Source: Escherichia coli (GTDB lineage: Bacteria > Pseudomonadota > Gammaproteobacteria > Enterobacterales > Enterobacteriaceae). Taken from it: 64,000 nt of DNA. Shown one piece after another: positions 5,668 through 37,007 of the stretch (its first letter is position 1; every line of letters starts with the position of its first letter). The DNA is taken from NCBI RefSeq assembly GCF_030013205.1, contig NZ_CP122648.1; one strand, written 5' to 3'. Under the pieces are notes generated by a model. That model was not told the origin of the DNA, made no database searches, and saw nothing but the letters and a program-made list of their open reading frames with translations. The translations under genes and the position numbers were made by a program.

Positions 5668-5790
5668 GAAACCAGAACATGCACACACAAAAAAACCGCT
5701 TGCCATGCCGTAATCAGTCAGGTTACATTTCCGCTGCACCTCATAAAACGGGTGCCGGGATTCTCAACCCGATACAGAGCAAAGCGCATA

Positions 5791-5810
5791 ACCGCGCCAG
5801 CGGTTTTTTT
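5791..5810 (+). terminator. Putative intrinsic terminator inside the noncoding gap
   Basis: accgc-gcca-gcggt hairpin followed by a run of seven T. Confidence 0.35.
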
Positions 5811-5989
5811 GTGCGTACTGTATTGCCACGTCTTTTTCGCGTCAGAATTATGGCGGGGCGTACGGGGCCGACTTCGGTCGGGCCGGATTCTTTGCTCTCC
5901 GGTGTTGAGAACCCTGTACGTCTCGCCACCCCGAGATTCTCAACTCTGGATGGTGAGTTATTTCTATCACCGAGCAAAGAGGCCACACC

Positions 5990-31679: not shown

Positions 31680-32226
31680 CGGGGAAGCCATTCTGCTGCG
31701 CAACATCACCGTCAGCGCCACCATGCAACTACCGGACAAAGATATGTCCGGACAGTCAACCAGCACCACGAGCGCCCAGCAGGGAAACAAGGCTAAAGAG
31801 CTGCGCGTTTCGGGGGTTATTGATTTTAACGATGAAGCCATTCTGACCCGTATTTTTCAGCTTGCGGAAGCAACAGAAAGCAACGGCGCTAAAAAAACAT
31901 ATCGCATTGCTAACGCTACCGCGAAGGCAATCAATATGCGACAGGGGATATTTTCTGGTGGCATTGATGCCACGGAACAACAGGGAAAAATGCACTGGCA
32001 GGTCACCTTTACTCTCAGGGAAAAATTAAGCGTGCCAGAGAAAGCATCAGCACGTAGCGGTTCACAAAAAACCATCGCCAGACAGCAGACCCAGAATGGC
32101 AGCGAACAGGCACCAGACAAAGGCATGAATACGCAAAGTTCGTTCTGGAAAAAAATCAATGATGCCGTTGGCTCTGGTCTGGATGCTGTTGGCATCGGGA
32201 GCGTGAAAGAGGAAGGGAAAACATGA
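31651..32226 (+). CDS. Hypothetical protein
   Basis: 191-aa ORF between the fibre module and the spike gene. Confidence 0.4.
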   Translation: MTQMIVLALDGEAILLRNITVSATMQLPDKDMSGQSTSTTSAQQGNKAKELRVSGVIDFNDEAILTRIFQLAEATESNGAKKTYRIANATAKAINMRQGIFSGGIDATEQQGKMHWQVTFTLREKLSVPEKASARSGSQKTIARQQTQNGSEQAPDKGMNTQSSFWKKINDAVGSGLDAVGIGSVKEEGKT

Positions 32227-33920
32227 AATTGATACAACGCTGCATGATTAATGGCGAACGGGTGGAAATTGCCGATATAAGCCTTGTTCTTACCCTGAAT
32301 GCTGCCGGTCGTGGCTTCATTTCTGTTAACAATCTGTCATCCGAACACAGCCTTGCCGGCGCAATGGTACAAATTGATCTCGGTCGTGACGGTGAAGCAT
32401 GGCGCTATTTCTCCGGCTATATTGAGCGCGATCAACCTGCTGAAAATGGCTCACGTCGCCTTTTTATTCGTGAAGCGGCTGCTGTGCTGGATTTTGATTT
32501 CCCCTGCTCCATGCAACACCCGACGTTGCGGGAGGTACTCGATAATCTGGGGCGACAAAGCGGTATCGTTTTTATCACTCCGGATGCGGATTATGCCAGT
32601 ATACCAACTCCCTACATCACCCACAGCGGCAGCGGAGCACAACTGCTCAGCCAGCTGGGGCGAGCATTCAGTATCAACGATTACGTCTGGCACCCTATGC
32701 CGGACGGTTCTGTATTTGTGGGAAGTGCAGCTGATTCACGATTTGCCAGCATTACAATGCCGGATATTCCGCAACAGTACACACTCGGGCAAAGCGGCGG
32801 AAACAGCATCGACATCATGTTTATGGAAACTGTGCGACCGGGCGTGAACCTTCCGGCCGGGCGCATTACCCGTGTAGCCCTCAACAACGAGAAAATGACC
32901 CTGACATGGGAGCGCCTTACCGCCACGGGCAGCCCTGTCTCCAAATCACCATTACGCAGACAGATGGAAACACAGTTCCCGGAACTGGCCAGCGGCACAC
33001 TACACACCAGGCTGGCGCGCGTCATTGCACCAACGGAATCCGCCACCCTGGGCGATGTGGCCGACAGCTTCCGTCCACGCTACGCCGTGGACGTGCAACT
33101 GCTCGATGAGGACGGCAACGATAAAAGCGATACGCCTGTTTACCCGGCAGTCCCACTCCCCGTCCCGATGGCTGGTAGCGAGGCGGGATGTTTTGCCTAC
33201 CCGCCGGCAGGCACCATCGTGGAAATATCTAACATTGAAGGGCGCCCGGATAAACCTGTTATCAGGCAAATCTTACCTGCTGGCCATAACCTGCCTGATG
33301 TAAAGCCCGGCGAACAACTGCAGCAACAGCGCGCAGAAGTGTTTCAGCGCGTCACGACTGACGGAAGCTGGCACAGAGAAACAGACCAGCAAATCAGGGA
33401 GCAGTCAGCCACCCGCACAATTAACAGTGATGCAGAAGAGCGCACCACAACAACCAGAACAACCACAGTACGGGCAAACGACATAACCAGTGTTCTGGGA
33501 ACCAGCAAGCTGGCGGCAGGACAAATAGAGCACCTTACTACCGGCCATTACGCGATCGCAGCCAGCGAGCATATCCAGATGGTAGCGCAGGATTTGCTGA
33601 CTAAACTCAAAGGGGCAATATCCACAATTGAGCAGGACCTGACTGAAAACGTGGGAGGCCGCAGAACATGCCGGGCGGACGGCGGTCTGAAGTTTACAGC
33701 CCCGACAGTATTTATTGGTCGCGGTGGCTCACGGGAAAAATCCGAACTTAATCTGCTGACGTTGTTGATTGATATTCTGGATCTGATTCAATTGCTGGCC
33801 ACGCACACAGCAAACCACACCCACAGCAACACTGGCGCACCAATGAACAGCGGCGAACTTGCCGCAGATGCCCTGCAGGCTACGAGCCTGCGCGAAAAAT
33901 ACGGCGACCTTATCGCCTGA
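32223..33920 (+). CDS. Baseplate hub/central spike protein (putative)
   Basis: 565 aa; C-terminal ...LIDILDLIQLLATHTANHTHSNTG... carries HxH repeats like the metal-binding apex of phage central spikes. Confidence 0.45.
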   Translation: MKLIQRCMINGERVEIADISLVLTLNAAGRGFISVNNLSSEHSLAGAMVQIDLGRDGEAWRYFSGYIERDQPAENGSRRLFIREAAAVLDFDFPCSMQHPTLREVLDNLGRQSGIVFITPDADYASIPTPYITHSGSGAQLLSQLGRAFSINDYVWHPMPDGSVFVGSAADSRFASITMPDIPQQYTLGQSGGNSIDIMFMETVRPGVNLPAGRITRVALNNEKMTLTWERLTATGSPVSKSPLRRQMETQFPELASGTLHTRLARVIAPTESATLGDVADSFRPRYAVDVQLLDEDGNDKSDTPVYPAVPLPVPMAGSEAGCFAYPPAGTIVEISNIEGRPDKPVIRQILPAGHNLPDVKPGEQLQQQRAEVFQRVTTDGSWHRETDQQIREQSATRTINSDAEERTTTTRTTTVRANDITSVLGTSKLAAGQIEHLTTGHYAIAASEHIQMVAQDLLTKLKGAISTIEQDLTENVGGRRTCRADGGLKFTAPTVFIGRGGSREKSELNLLTLLIDILDLIQLLATHTANHTHSNTGAPMNSGELAADALQATSLREKYGDLIA

Positions 33921-33958
33921 GCTCCCGACATAAAACCCACATAAACGCCCCATCAAAC

Positions 33959-33985
33959 AACGCACGGTTCCGACCGTGCGTTTTT
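33959..33985 (+). terminator. Intrinsic terminator after the tail operon
   Basis: aacgcacggttccgaccgtgcgtttttc hairpin plus T-run. Confidence 0.6.
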
Positions 33986-34749
33986 CATATCCACCACCTG
34001 ATTAATGCGTTCTGCGTGCCATTCCGGCGCTGTATGCACACACCGCGTAAACGGTGTGACGTAAAGTGTGAGGTGACGTAAACCGCGCTACCCCCTCCAA
34101 CCCGCGGGTTTTGTGTCGAAACAGTTTTTCAGTTTTCTGCCGTGCAAAACTGACCGCCAGCCCGCGCAGCAACTGAGGAAAAAGCGAAGATCTGAAATTT
34201 CACGCTTTGAAATTTTTTGCAGTTTTCAGAGGGATTTTTACGATCTCATGAATGGCAGGAGAAAGAAAACAGGCTGATATTAAAAGAGTTTTCATACTTT
34301 ACGTGGGACAAGACGCGATCGCGAAAGGATCGCATCAAAAAATCTTCAAACAACGAAGCCAGACGCGGCGCGGCCTGCGTAAGATTGAGAGTCAAAATTA
34401 AACTGAAAAAAGGATCAATACCGCGCCTCGATCGCACATGACGATCTACGCAGCAACAGGACAAAAAAACCGGCGCGAACGCCGGCGGAAGCATGTATCA
34501 AATGCGTGACTGAATAATGTCTACGGTCGGGAATTTTATATCAAAAGGCTGACAGGCCTCAACGGATTGAAACAAGGGAAAAAACCAGGCTAGAATTCGC
34601 GCGGGTGCCTTTCGGCTGATGGTCGGAGGGAATACCCGAAGGCCGGATGTGGAAAGGCCCCGGAAAACATTTCTGTTTAACCGAGGCCCTAACATATCTA
34701 CCTTAAGCAAGTGATAGGTTAGCGCCTCTCCAACAAAGGAGCAAGCGCT

Positions 34750-34890
34750 ATGTCGCAAAAATCGCTTACGGCCATCACGTTCTGCGTGACGGTAATCCTC
34801 ATCATCTGGATGCTGCACGGCTCGCTGTGTGAAATACGGATGAGCTTCTGGGGAGCGGAGTTTGCGGCGTTCTTACAGTGTAAACAGTAA
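34750..34890 (+). CDS. Hok/Gef-family type I toxin (46 aa)
   Basis: MSQKSLTAITFCVTVILIIWMLHGSLCEIRMSFWGAEFAAFLQCKQ carries the Hok/Gef SLCEIR...AAF signature; long structured leader upstream; below the ORF-track cutoff. Confidence 0.65.
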   Translation: MSQKSLTAITFCVTVILIIWMLHGSLCEIRMSFWGAEFAAFLQCKQ

Positions 34891-35025
34891 GGAAACCGCG
34901 ACGGGGGAGCAATCCCCCGTCAATCGGTTGCCAGGGTATGGTCGAAGTGGCACCCAAATTTAAATTGAGGCCCACCAGTAAGAGTGGTGGGCTTAACGCT
35001 TATTTAAATTTGAAAGGAACTCTTT

Positions 35026-35322
35026 ATGAGTGAAATGGTATTTTGTCGCGGATGCGGCAAGGAAATACATAAAGATGCCACATCCTGCCCCAATTGTGGA
35101 GCACCTCAAAGAACAGCAAGTTCAAAAAGCAGAATGACAGCCGCACTACTGGCTTTCTTTTTAGGTGGTCTTGGAGCACACAAATTTTATTTAGGTAAAG
35201 TGGGGCAAGGATTCCTTTACCTTATTTTTTGCTGGACATTCATTCCGGCAATCGTGGCATTTATTGAGTTTTTTATCTATCTATGCACCTCTGATGAAGA
35301 CTTTGCCCGCAAATATGGCTAA
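35026..35322 (+). CDS. Zinc-ribbon plus TM2-domain membrane protein
   Basis: CRGCGKEIHKDATSCPNCGAP zinc ribbon followed by LLAFFLGGLGAHKFYLGKVGQGFLYL; AT-rich. Confidence 0.6.
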   Translation: MSEMVFCRGCGKEIHKDATSCPNCGAPQRTASSKSRMTAALLAFFLGGLGAHKFYLGKVGQGFLYLIFCWTFIPAIVAFIEFFIYLCTSDEDFARKYG

Positions 35323-35347
35323 TGCCTAGTGGGCGAATCAGAATGAC

Positions 35348-35382
35348 AAACCCGCAGCGTAAAAACTGCGGGTTTTCTTTTT
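35348..35382 (+). terminator. Intrinsic terminator after the TM2-domain gene
   Basis: aaacccgcagcgtaaaaactgcgggttttcttttt. Confidence 0.6.
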
Positions 35383-35429
35383 GCTACCCTCACAAATGAG
35401 GACACCATACATAAGCAATAGGCATAACA

Positions 35430-35464
35430 GATCGATGCAATAAATCCGATCGATAAAAACGATC
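35430..35464. promoter_or_regulatory. Cluster of three GATCGAT (Dam GATC) sites upstream of the com-like gene
   Basis: GATC at 35430-35433, 35448-35451 and 35461-35464, about 50-80 bp upstream of the com-like start. Confidence 0.4.
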
Positions 35465-35511
35465 GATTTGTTATCATATCGGCAGCAGTAACCACACAAG
35501 AGGTGCCGCAA

Positions 35512-35709
35512 ATGACGCAAAATGTACGATGCAAAAATTGCAACAAACTACTTGCCCGCGCCTCATTTCACTACATTGAAATAAAATGTCCGCGCTGCAA
35601 AACACTTAACCAGATAACGAGAGCCATCGAGCACCCCACACACATGAGGAGTTATGACCGTGGGGATCGCAATCCAGCACCAACCAGCACATATACCGGA
35701 ACACACTAA
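35512..35709 (+). CDS. com: Com-like zinc-finger translational regulator (phage Mu Com family, putative)
   Basis: MTQNVRCKNCNKLLARASFHYIEIKCPRCKTLNQITRAIEHPT vs recalled Mu Com MKSIRCKNCNKLLFKADSFDHIEIRCPRCK...CEHPT; AAGAGGTG RBS; overlaps the 5' end of the methyltransferase ORF. Confidence 0.6.
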   Translation: MTQNVRCKNCNKLLARASFHYIEIKCPRCKTLNQITRAIEHPTHMRSYDRGDRNPAPTSTYTGTH

Positions 35710-36460
35710 GGTTTATCAGACTGACAATGCCACGCTCTGTCGTGGGAATGCGCTGGAAATATTGCCGCTGATTGAGCCAGAAAGCATTGATGCCTTAATC
35801 ACTGACCCGCCTTACAGTTCGGGTGCGACACACAAGGCCGGACGCACCAACCAGGGCAGCCATGCAAAATATCTGAACGGCGAGAACCTTCACCGCTTTG
35901 ATGGGTTCGCTGGTGAAAACATGGACGCCCGTTCGTGGGCTTACTGGACACAATTATGGATGGCACAGGCACACCGTGCAGTCAGGCCGGGCGGTTATGC
36001 CCTGGTATTTACTGACTGGCGACAACTACCAGCTTTAACCGATGCGTTTCAGGCCAGTGGCTTTACATGGCGCGGCATCATTGCGTGGAACAAGGGGAGG
36101 GGGTCACGAACACCCCATACGGGGTATTTCAGGCATCAGTGCGAATACATCGTCTGGGGCAGCAAAGGCCATTTAGATAAATCGCCTTCGGGGCCGTTCG
36201 ACGGTTGCATGACGTACCCGGTTATCCCGTCAAAGAAAATGCACCCGACCGGAAAACCAGAAGAACTAATGGCGGAACTGGTCAGGACTGTGAATAGTGG
36301 CGGAACAGTCCTTGATCCTTTTATGGGGTCAGGGACAACGGGTGTGGCTGCACTGAAAGCAGGGCGAAAATTTATTGGTATAGAAACCAGTGATCATTAT
36401 TTTGAGGTAGCAGCGCAGCGGCTTCGAGAGACTATTACCACAACCATTTCGGCTACATAA
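35654..36460 (+). CDS. DNA amino-methyltransferase (N6-adenine or N4-cytosine; DPPY motif before the AdoMet motif)
   Basis: ...IDALITDPPYSSG... and ...VLDPFMGSGTTGVAALKAGRKFIGIE...; start lies inside the com-like ORF (ATG 35654, or GTG 35660). Confidence 0.8.
   Translation: MTVGIAIQHQPAHIPEHTKVYQTDNATLCRGNALEILPLIEPESIDALITDPPYSSGATHKAGRTNQGSHAKYLNGENLHRFDGFAGENMDARSWAYWTQLWMAQAHRAVRPGGYALVFTDWRQLPALTDAFQASGFTWRGIIAWNKGRGSRTPHTGYFRHQCEYIVWGSKGHLDKSPSGPFDGCMTYPVIPSKKMHPTGKPEELMAELVRTVNSGGTVLDPFMGSGTTGVAALKAGRKFIGIETSDHYFEVAAQRLRETITTTISAT

Positions 36461-36611: not shown

Positions 36612-37007
<396 letters not shown>

Follow-up and report, generated by a model that had tools for sequence, protein, structure and literature searches.

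A zinc-ribbon/TM2-domain gene cassette placed directly behind the predicted hok fold-back helix of an Escherichia coli prophage, with a predicted nested RNA hairpin at its front

In this study, we find that a short prophage gene for a predicted zinc-ribbon/TM2 membrane protein in E. coli lies in an acquired cassette that starts with the first base past the closing helix formed by the 5' and 3' ends of a hok mRNA. The reading that we favor, with somewhat better than even confidence, is that this cassette came without a promoter or a terminator, sits in the 3' untranslated tail of hok, is expressed from the hok promoter, carries an inherited RNA hairpin, and provides the lysogen with a membrane factor. 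We regard the gene as prophage cargo from a known domain family and as mildly unusual, the unusual feature being its exact placement behind the hok fold-back helix. To our knowledge, a passenger gene in the 3' tail has not been described for any other hok locus.

The window, that is, the whole stretch of 64,000 nucleotides that was analyzed, is E. coli chromosome, with pheA and its Phe leader at 572 to 1879, raiA at 36612 to 36953, and an rRNA operon at 42951 to 48054. A prophage of about 34 kb occupies the interval between pheL/pheA and raiA, and the features at its right end are collected in Table 1. The locus occurs in identical form in strain K_EC180, for which RefSeq lists a "Hok/Gef family protein" (WP_000078920.1), a "TM2 domain-containing protein" (WP_001519189.1), a Com family regulator, and a DNA methyltransferase. 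By BLAST, the structural region of the prophage (12 to 34.5 kb) had no close relative in the phage collection except for its tail-fibre genes. The hok-TM2-com-methylase module is nevertheless common to the window and to P88-like prophages that use the same raiA site, which suggests module exchange between different phage backbones. Between the baseplate gene and the hok promoter, about 670 nt (33921 to 34590) contain no convincing open reading frame (ORF), and in P88-like phages gpD and ogr are found there; the minus strand of this ORF-poor stretch has a terminator-like hairpin at 34469 to 34486. Elsewhere in the prophage, at 5736 to 5933, we noted isrK together with a C4 antisense RNA (P1/P7-type immunity RNA).

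Table 1. Features at the right end of the prophage, in window coordinates
Feature	Coordinates	Strand	Remarks
Baseplate gene	32223-33920		Right end of prophage; PHROG 2258
hok promoter, TTGAAA-18-TAGAAT	34567-34596	+	10/12 consensus match; PWM score 12.3 bits, highest in 34500-35060
hok mRNA 5' end (tac element)	34603-34616	+	Pairs with 34941-34955
hok toxin ORF, 46 aa	34750-34890	+	PF01848 HOK_GEF, E 3.7e-7, 30.1 bits (cut-off 22)
hok fbi element, 3' half of the 5'/3' closing helix	34941-34955	+	From MFE folds and homology to Chuche and P88
Nested inverted repeat/RNA hairpin	34955-35012	+	Lower stem 34955-65/35002-12; upper stem 34968-77/34985-94
Acquired cassette, ~385 nt, 41% GC	34956-35340	+	Hairpin, Shine-Dalgarno region, TM2 ORF, and 18 nt; absent from Chuche, P88, L019, and L022
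Shine-Dalgarno region, AAAGGAA	35013-35019	+	Immediately 3' of the hairpin base (35012), 6 nt before the ATG
Zinc-ribbon and TM2-domain gene, 98 aa plus stop	35026-35322	+	Already annotated, RefSeq WP_001519189.1
Intrinsic terminator, 10-bp stem plus T run	35348-35385 (stem 35348-35375)	+	Ancestral hok-locus terminator, predicted to be shared with the TM2 gene
com-like zinc-ribbon gene	35503-35709		Downstream of the TM2 ORF; PF10122
N6/N4 DNA methyltransferase gene	35654-36460		Downstream of the com-like gene

The preliminary description had placed an AT-rich zinc-ribbon/TM2 gene between hok and a com-like operon and had suggested that it may be prophage cargo, and the analysis bears out both points. 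The gene product matches Pfam TM2, and a hok gene (PF01848) lies upstream. The GC content is 0.418 for the ORF and 0.41 for the cassette, whereas the hok mRNA region has 0.544 and the prophage 0.52. That the gene is cargo is evident from its absence from close relatives. In megablast comparisons, homology to P88-like phages (Xuanwuvirus) ends at 34955 and returns near the terminator. Alignment with phages Chuche and P88 gives one clean gap, from 34956 to 35324: to its left the hok 3' end is identical, homology continuing through GGCACCC and then stopping, and to its right the terminator AAACCCGCAG...CTGCGGGTTTTCTTTTT is nearly identical. An equivalent gap with matching flanks is seen in two E. 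coli prophages, L019 and L022. Since the 14 nt past the gap cannot be aligned, the event exchanged some 14 nt for a cassette of about 385 nt, from 34956 to about 35340. On the right, its border can be placed only within 35324 to 35340, at most 18 nt past the stop codon.

Among the 5,426 complete genomes of E. coli, 95 carry the cassette, in most cases with 98% identity or higher, and about 1,030 have the empty-site form, which was searched with an artificial query and counted when the match covered at least 80% of the query length. All copies of the cassette that were recovered from E. coli genomes, IMG/VR, and metagenomes share both junctions exactly, which points to a single acquisition. The low GC content of the cassette and the near-identity of its copies, together with an empty form that is much more widespread and more varied, make an insertion the sensible polarity of the event, in preference to repeated deletions. 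No donor was found by an exact search for the hairpin in viral contigs, by an exact search for the 5' coding sequence in metagenome contigs, by a 5'-UTR search of 100,044 species genomes, or by BLAST against plasmids and E. coli genomes: every true copy of the cassette sits in the same hok context, and 11 matches in genome contigs were random, from unrelated taxa.

Because the left arm of the inverted repeat in front of the gene lies exactly at the left border of the cassette, one might suppose that the repeat is a mobility element, such as the ends of a miniature inverted-repeat transposable element (MITE), an integron attC-like site, or a transposase hairpin, and that it moved the cassette. 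We consider this extremely improbable. The repeat is present in a single copy per genome and always in the same context, a target-site duplication is absent, there is no GTTRRRY core, the repeat is located 5' of the ORF and not 3', and homologues of the gene elsewhere occur without the repeat. We rejected the MITE, attC, and transposon-end readings for three of these reasons, namely, the single copy, the missing target-site duplication, and the location of the repeat on the wrong side relative to the ORF.

The locus that hosts the cassette shares with the hok/sok type I toxin-antitoxin system of plasmid R1 (parB) a Hok ORF, a match of its leader to the Rfam sok/hok model, and a 14-bp helix predicted to close the 5' end onto the 3' end, but it differs in carrying a second cistron between fbi and the terminator. 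The Rfam match begins at 34603 and scores 44.8 bits (E 1.7e-8), which is below the gathering score of 59. In hok mRNA, the tac/fbi fold-back helix keeps the full-length transcript closed until its 3' end is trimmed (PMC9841398). We folded transcripts with three different ends, namely, just after fbi, after the hairpin, and at the terminator, and the tac/fbi helix (34603-16/34941-55) was predicted in the minimum free energy (MFE) folds for all three lengths as well as in Chuche, and thus both with and without the cassette. As the cassette begins directly past this helix, the folded hok module would remain intact, with the new hairpin predicted to stack directly against the closing helix. Apart from the hok leader, the Rfam scan returned only a MicC-like match over the end of the ORF and the terminator (35265 to 35389), which is far below threshold (28.5 bits versus a gathering score of 90) and probably driven by the terminator.

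The TM2 gene had been described as standing alone, with a terminator of its own, and neither part of that description is supported. Our promoter scans, which covered sigma-70 sites only and used a consensus search (9/12 or better) together with a simple position weight matrix (PWM), revealed no sigma-70-like site from hok to the ATG (34900 to 35025): none reached 9/12, and the highest PWM score was 5.1 bits, compared with 12.3 bits for the hok promoter and 6.2 bits for the 99.9th percentile of the window. The hok promoter is the sole strong sigma-70-like promoter upstream of the gene. Upon inspection by eye, no late promoter of the Ogr type (TGT-N12-ACA) was seen upstream of the gene either; an activator-dependent or otherwise non-canonical promoter may serve it. 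As for the terminator, the same element is kept, nearly identical, in Chuche, P88, and L019, where the cassette is missing and it follows directly after the hok fbi. Its presence in these relatives means that it belongs to the hok locus and predates the insertion.

With no recognizable promoter of its own and a cassette that ends at most 18 nt past the stop codon, the simplest arrangement is that the TM2 gene is the distal cistron of hok and uses the hok terminator. The hok transcript would then run from the promoter at 34567-96 through the hairpin to the terminator at 35348-85, which would give the lysogen a low but constitutive supply of TM2 protein. We infer this co-transcription with hok from the absence of both a recognizable promoter and a terminator in the cassette. 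When the long transcript is folded as a whole, the Shine-Dalgarno region is mostly paired in the MFE structure (unpaired probability, 0.07), so that a full-length hok transcript may be translated poorly into TM2 protein. The homologues L029, L032, and L037 carry a similar AAATTT(A/G)(A/G)AAGGA ahead of their ATG, and upstream of this Shine-Dalgarno region nothing could be aligned among the homologues. A perfect 8-bp inverted repeat (35021-35028/35068-35075) could sequester the TM2 start codon, although in the ensemble the AUG is about 60% unpaired.

In these respects the cassette departs from the classical moron in the HK97/HK022 sense, which brings its own promoter and terminator. Like morons and other prophage cargo, such as old, tin, and Z/fun of P2, it adds a gene that is absent from close relatives, with sharp borders and a lower GC content, near the prophage end and in a variable region. 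Unlike classical morons, it has no recognized promoter or terminator of its own, and in this it also differs from the TM2 homologues in other phages, which carry their own terminator.

A long inverted repeat upstream of the gene had been noted before, at about 34958 to 35012. The repeat and its inner GC hairpin are real, but the left edge had been set 3 nt too far to the right, as the repeat starts at 34955. Its outer arms, CAAATTTAAAT (34955 to 34965) and ATTTAAATTTG (35002 to 35012), are 11 nt long and 100% complementary; the DNA repeat scan detected the inner hairpin at 34970-77/34985-92, which RNA folding extended to 10 bp (34968-77/34985-94). In the predicted fold of the plus-strand RNA, a lower stem of 11 bp, rich in A/U, leads through a 2x7 internal loop into an upper stem of 10 bp, which is GC-rich, with 6 G-C pairs and one G.U pair, and is capped by a loop of 7 nt. 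This hairpin has an energy of -28.3 kcal/mol (z = -3.8), and it stays folded in a 781-nt transcript (unpaired probability, 0.02 to 0.05). The pattern ATTTAAAT-N20-50-ATTTAAAT occurs once, compared with no occurrence in 100 shuffles. The window as a whole contains 10 distinct perfect inverted repeats of at least 11 nt, compared with about 1.35 seed matches in Markov simulations.

The preliminary description had suggested that this repeat could be an operator, with the 11-bp arms serving as half-sites of a dimeric DNA-binding regulator that controls a TM2 promoter. A perfect 11-nt dyad that is improbable by chance and lies just upstream of a gene does invite this idea, which we nonetheless judge to be very unlikely. 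An operator is a dyad that overlaps or adjoins a promoter, usually with a site that recurs in the regulon. Here, no promoter-like site overlaps the dyad or lies 3' of it, the arms stand 36 bp apart (47 bp from centre to centre) around a GC hairpin, unlike those of phage operators, and the half-site is not recurrent, with 3 matches in the window versus 1.9 expected, two of which are the arms themselves. Sequence variants also argue, if weakly, against a DNA site. The stem substitutions found in them, C34992T, C34975T, and A35002G, all three give G.U pairs in the plus-strand RNA and break the DNA dyad; A35002G, for instance, which occurs in L028 and L095, destroys the dyad and keeps a U.G pair. 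For three of three transitions to be compatible with wobble pairing, the chance probability is about 0.125. Across five distinct variants, 99% of the cells of the hairpin are paired, and none of the five shows a compensatory change in the stems. Compared with variant L028, from which the ORF has diverged to a dS of 0.175, the preceding 72 nt show only about five differences, most of which fall in the loop, and this paucity of changes suggests that the element is not drifting freely. We believe that the dyad would act, if at all, as an RNA stem-loop rather than as a DNA operator.

The origin of such a stem-loop is suggested by the homologue L036 (71% amino acid identity), where gpD, ogr, a nested hairpin, a Shine-Dalgarno region, and TM2 are found together with no space for a promoter. 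The L036 hairpin, AATAAGTA-tttaa-TCCGCC-taccag-GGCGGA-tttt-ACTTATT, likewise combines an AT-rich outer with a GC-rich inner stem; it is the ogr terminator and is located just upstream of the Shine-Dalgarno region. In several other P2-like prophages, a TM2 homologue also follows directly after the ogr terminator, with a longer spacer and with its own terminator on the gene. Most likely, then, the hairpin of the cassette is a terminator-like stem-loop that belonged, in the donor, to the gene ahead of TM2 and was carried in with TM2, a reading based on the analogy with L036 and on a weak similarity to ogr terminators.

Possibly, the hairpin still works as a terminator or insulator that ends the hok mRNA, in which case TM2 would be largely silent or expressed from an unrecognized or inducible promoter or by lytic read-through. 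The position fits, because the 10-bp GC-rich stem stands 12 nt past fbi and the GC hairpin of the ancestral terminator about 28 nt past it, and the analogous hairpin of L036, which has a better T tract (ATTTTACTTATT), is the ogr terminator. However, with only 3 T in 8, the tail past the GC stem, TTAACGCT, makes a poor U tract, and the hairpin is absent from the output of the terminator scan, so that read-through is to be expected; the poor tract would let most transcripts pass. Moreover, once the lower stem forms, it is AAAGGAAC that comes next after the hairpin, and the strong purifying selection on the ORF (see below) argues for expression. For these reasons we think that a working terminator is unlikely.

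The shape of the hairpin also recalls an RNase III-type processing site of the kind found in T7 early mRNA, which would uncouple a hok mRNA ending just after fbi from a TM2 mRNA that begins close to its Shine-Dalgarno region. It has two stems of about 10 bp, an asymmetric internal loop, and about 21 bp in total, it lies exactly between the two cistrons, and its geometry resembles that of the T7 R1.1-type sites. The resemblance is purely structural, however, as there is neither an Rfam family match nor covariation, and almost all intrinsic terminators that have A/U extensions look much alike; dedicated processing by RNase III therefore strikes us as quite improbable. As an inherited stem-loop on the hok transcript, the hairpin would place a GC-rich structure right behind fbi in the hok fold, which is also how the ancestral arrangement looked, and its present role could be to protect the 3' end of hok mRNA, to act as a partial terminator, or to provide a processing site.

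The encoded protein matches the Pfam TM2 profile (PF05154) at residues 33 to 83, covering profile positions 2 to 51 of 51 and scoring 68.6 bits where the cut-off is 27.9 (E 5.5e-19). For residues 6 to 27, with the pattern CxxC...CxxC, there is a match to Zn_Ribbon_1 (PF13240-like) with 24.1 bits, just under the cut-off of 25. Among 37 homologues from Enterobacterales, Aeromonas, and Plesiomonas (70 to 86% identity), 30 columns are invariant, including the four cysteines (C7-x2-C10 and C21-x2-C24), His15, the G-x-H-K-F-Y-L-G motif at the end of helix 1, W70-T71, and E81-F82. With dN/dS values of 0.025 versus L028, 0.04 versus L009, and 0.025 to 0.07 overall, the protein appears to be under strong purifying selection. 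The AF2 model is mediocre (mean pLDDT, 68) and better over the helices (77 to 83), which span residues 34 to 55 and 59 to 97, with short strands in the ribbon. In a 19-residue hydropathy window, values above 1.6 are reached only over residues 59 to 90, the first helix (37 to 52) being shorter and below the threshold. Considering the zinc ribbon and the N-terminal charge of +3 before helix 1, we predict a helical hairpin in the inner membrane that leaves both the C terminus and the N-terminal zinc ribbon on the cytoplasmic side.

The protein shares with the TM2 family (PF05154; COG2314, "YozV," and the NCBI "NINE protein") the G-x-H-K-F-Y-L-G ... W-T ... E-F motifs and the predicted two-helix hairpin, and it differs from the family by its putative N-terminal Cys4 zinc ribbon. 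Database searches added little to this. Foldseek with the mediocre AF2 model gave only weak, generic zinc-finger matches (E > 1), a sequence search of the PDB returned no solved relatives, none of the PADLOC-DB protein models matched at an E value of 1 or less, and no NCBIfam model scored above its cut-off. The PHROG families over the TM2 region are all of "unknown function," and two weak matches to the zinc ribbon only are labeled "membrane protein." In the literature on the TM2 domain, COG2314, and YozV, we found no functional study of bacterial members.

The relatives of the gene occur in very different surroundings. In P2-like prophages (L006, L009, L012, and L036), TM2 homologues are cargo at the ogr-attR end, in phage BUCT618 a homologue is an early-region gene, and on plasmids of about 1.9 kb from E. 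coli, Klebsiella, and Enterobacter it is one of only two annotated genes. Orthologues with 77 to 79% identity form single-gene islets in core chromosomes, outside prophages, between btuCED/DUF2502 and ihfA-pheTS in Yersinia enterocolitica (L099) and between cpxP and fieF-pfkA in Enterobacter (L102). Judging from these contexts, the TM2 family travels alone and is not specific to phages. In plasmid pKMi029_14 (L005; 2029 bp), the homologue is split by a MITE-like insert of about 115 bp at 1690 to 1810 with terminal inverted repeats gtgcgaataagt and acttattcgcac, and the gene is annotated as a frameshifted pseudogene.

The most probable role of the protein would be that of a membrane factor expressed in the lysogen, for example, in the exclusion of an incoming phage or in another envelope function. 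Superinfection exclusion is a reasonable guess. HK97 gp15, T4 Imm, P22 SieA, and phi80 Cor are small inner membrane proteins that act in superinfection exclusion, and, like them, the TM2 protein is a predicted small membrane protein from prophage cargo that should be expressed in the lysogen. In contrast to these proteins, to which it has no sequence or family relationship, it has relatives in core chromosomes and on plasmids of about 1.9 kb. The idea of superinfection exclusion is tempered by this distribution, because the family context does not imply an anti-phage role. Conceivably, the zinc-ribbon/TM2 proteins of Enterobacterales are a widespread protective membrane module, self-sufficient as a single gene, that blocks phage DNA entry or buffers membrane damage and that is wired here to hok through a processing or stability hairpin, which would couple toxin mRNA maturation to the expression of the passenger; this more elaborate scheme we regard as distinctly unlikely. 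In any case, a strongly conserved 98-aa protein that is found alone on the smallest plasmids, at prophage ends, and in single-gene islets lends itself to a phage-challenge or envelope-stress screen, as an inexpensive candidate with clear limits.

Comparison of L019 to L022 with the window at 34949 to 34970 indicates a variable cargo junction a few bases past the hok fbi in P88-like prophages. After GGCACCC(TATCTCAC), there follows either the terminator and attR beside serS, or com-methylase, or a RES-family NAD+ phosphorylase, or another zinc-ribbon membrane protein with a TagO-like gene. The stretch just 3' of the hok fold-back is thus a recurrent site for cargo in these prophages, distinct from the P2 hotspot described so far. 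P2-like phages carry anti-phage cargo at a variable locus between gpA and gpQ (old/tin) (PMC9122126), whereas the cassette is located at the 3' end of hok, at the ogr-attR end; the papers on the P2 hotspot that we examined make no mention of ogr or hok. If the gene does ride on the hok transcript, it would provide a natural test of the 3' extension that is tolerated by the fold-back control of hok.

Downstream of the terminator, the promoter region of the com and methyltransferase genes (35424 to 35477) contains a 13-nt inverted repeat, ATAACAGATCGAT/ATCGATTTGTTAT, that surrounds three GATCGAT (Dam GATC) sites. The repeat also overlaps a promoter, TCGATA-16-TATCAT, that is preceded by a TG. 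This arrangement is reminiscent of the control of Mu mom by Dam and OxyR.
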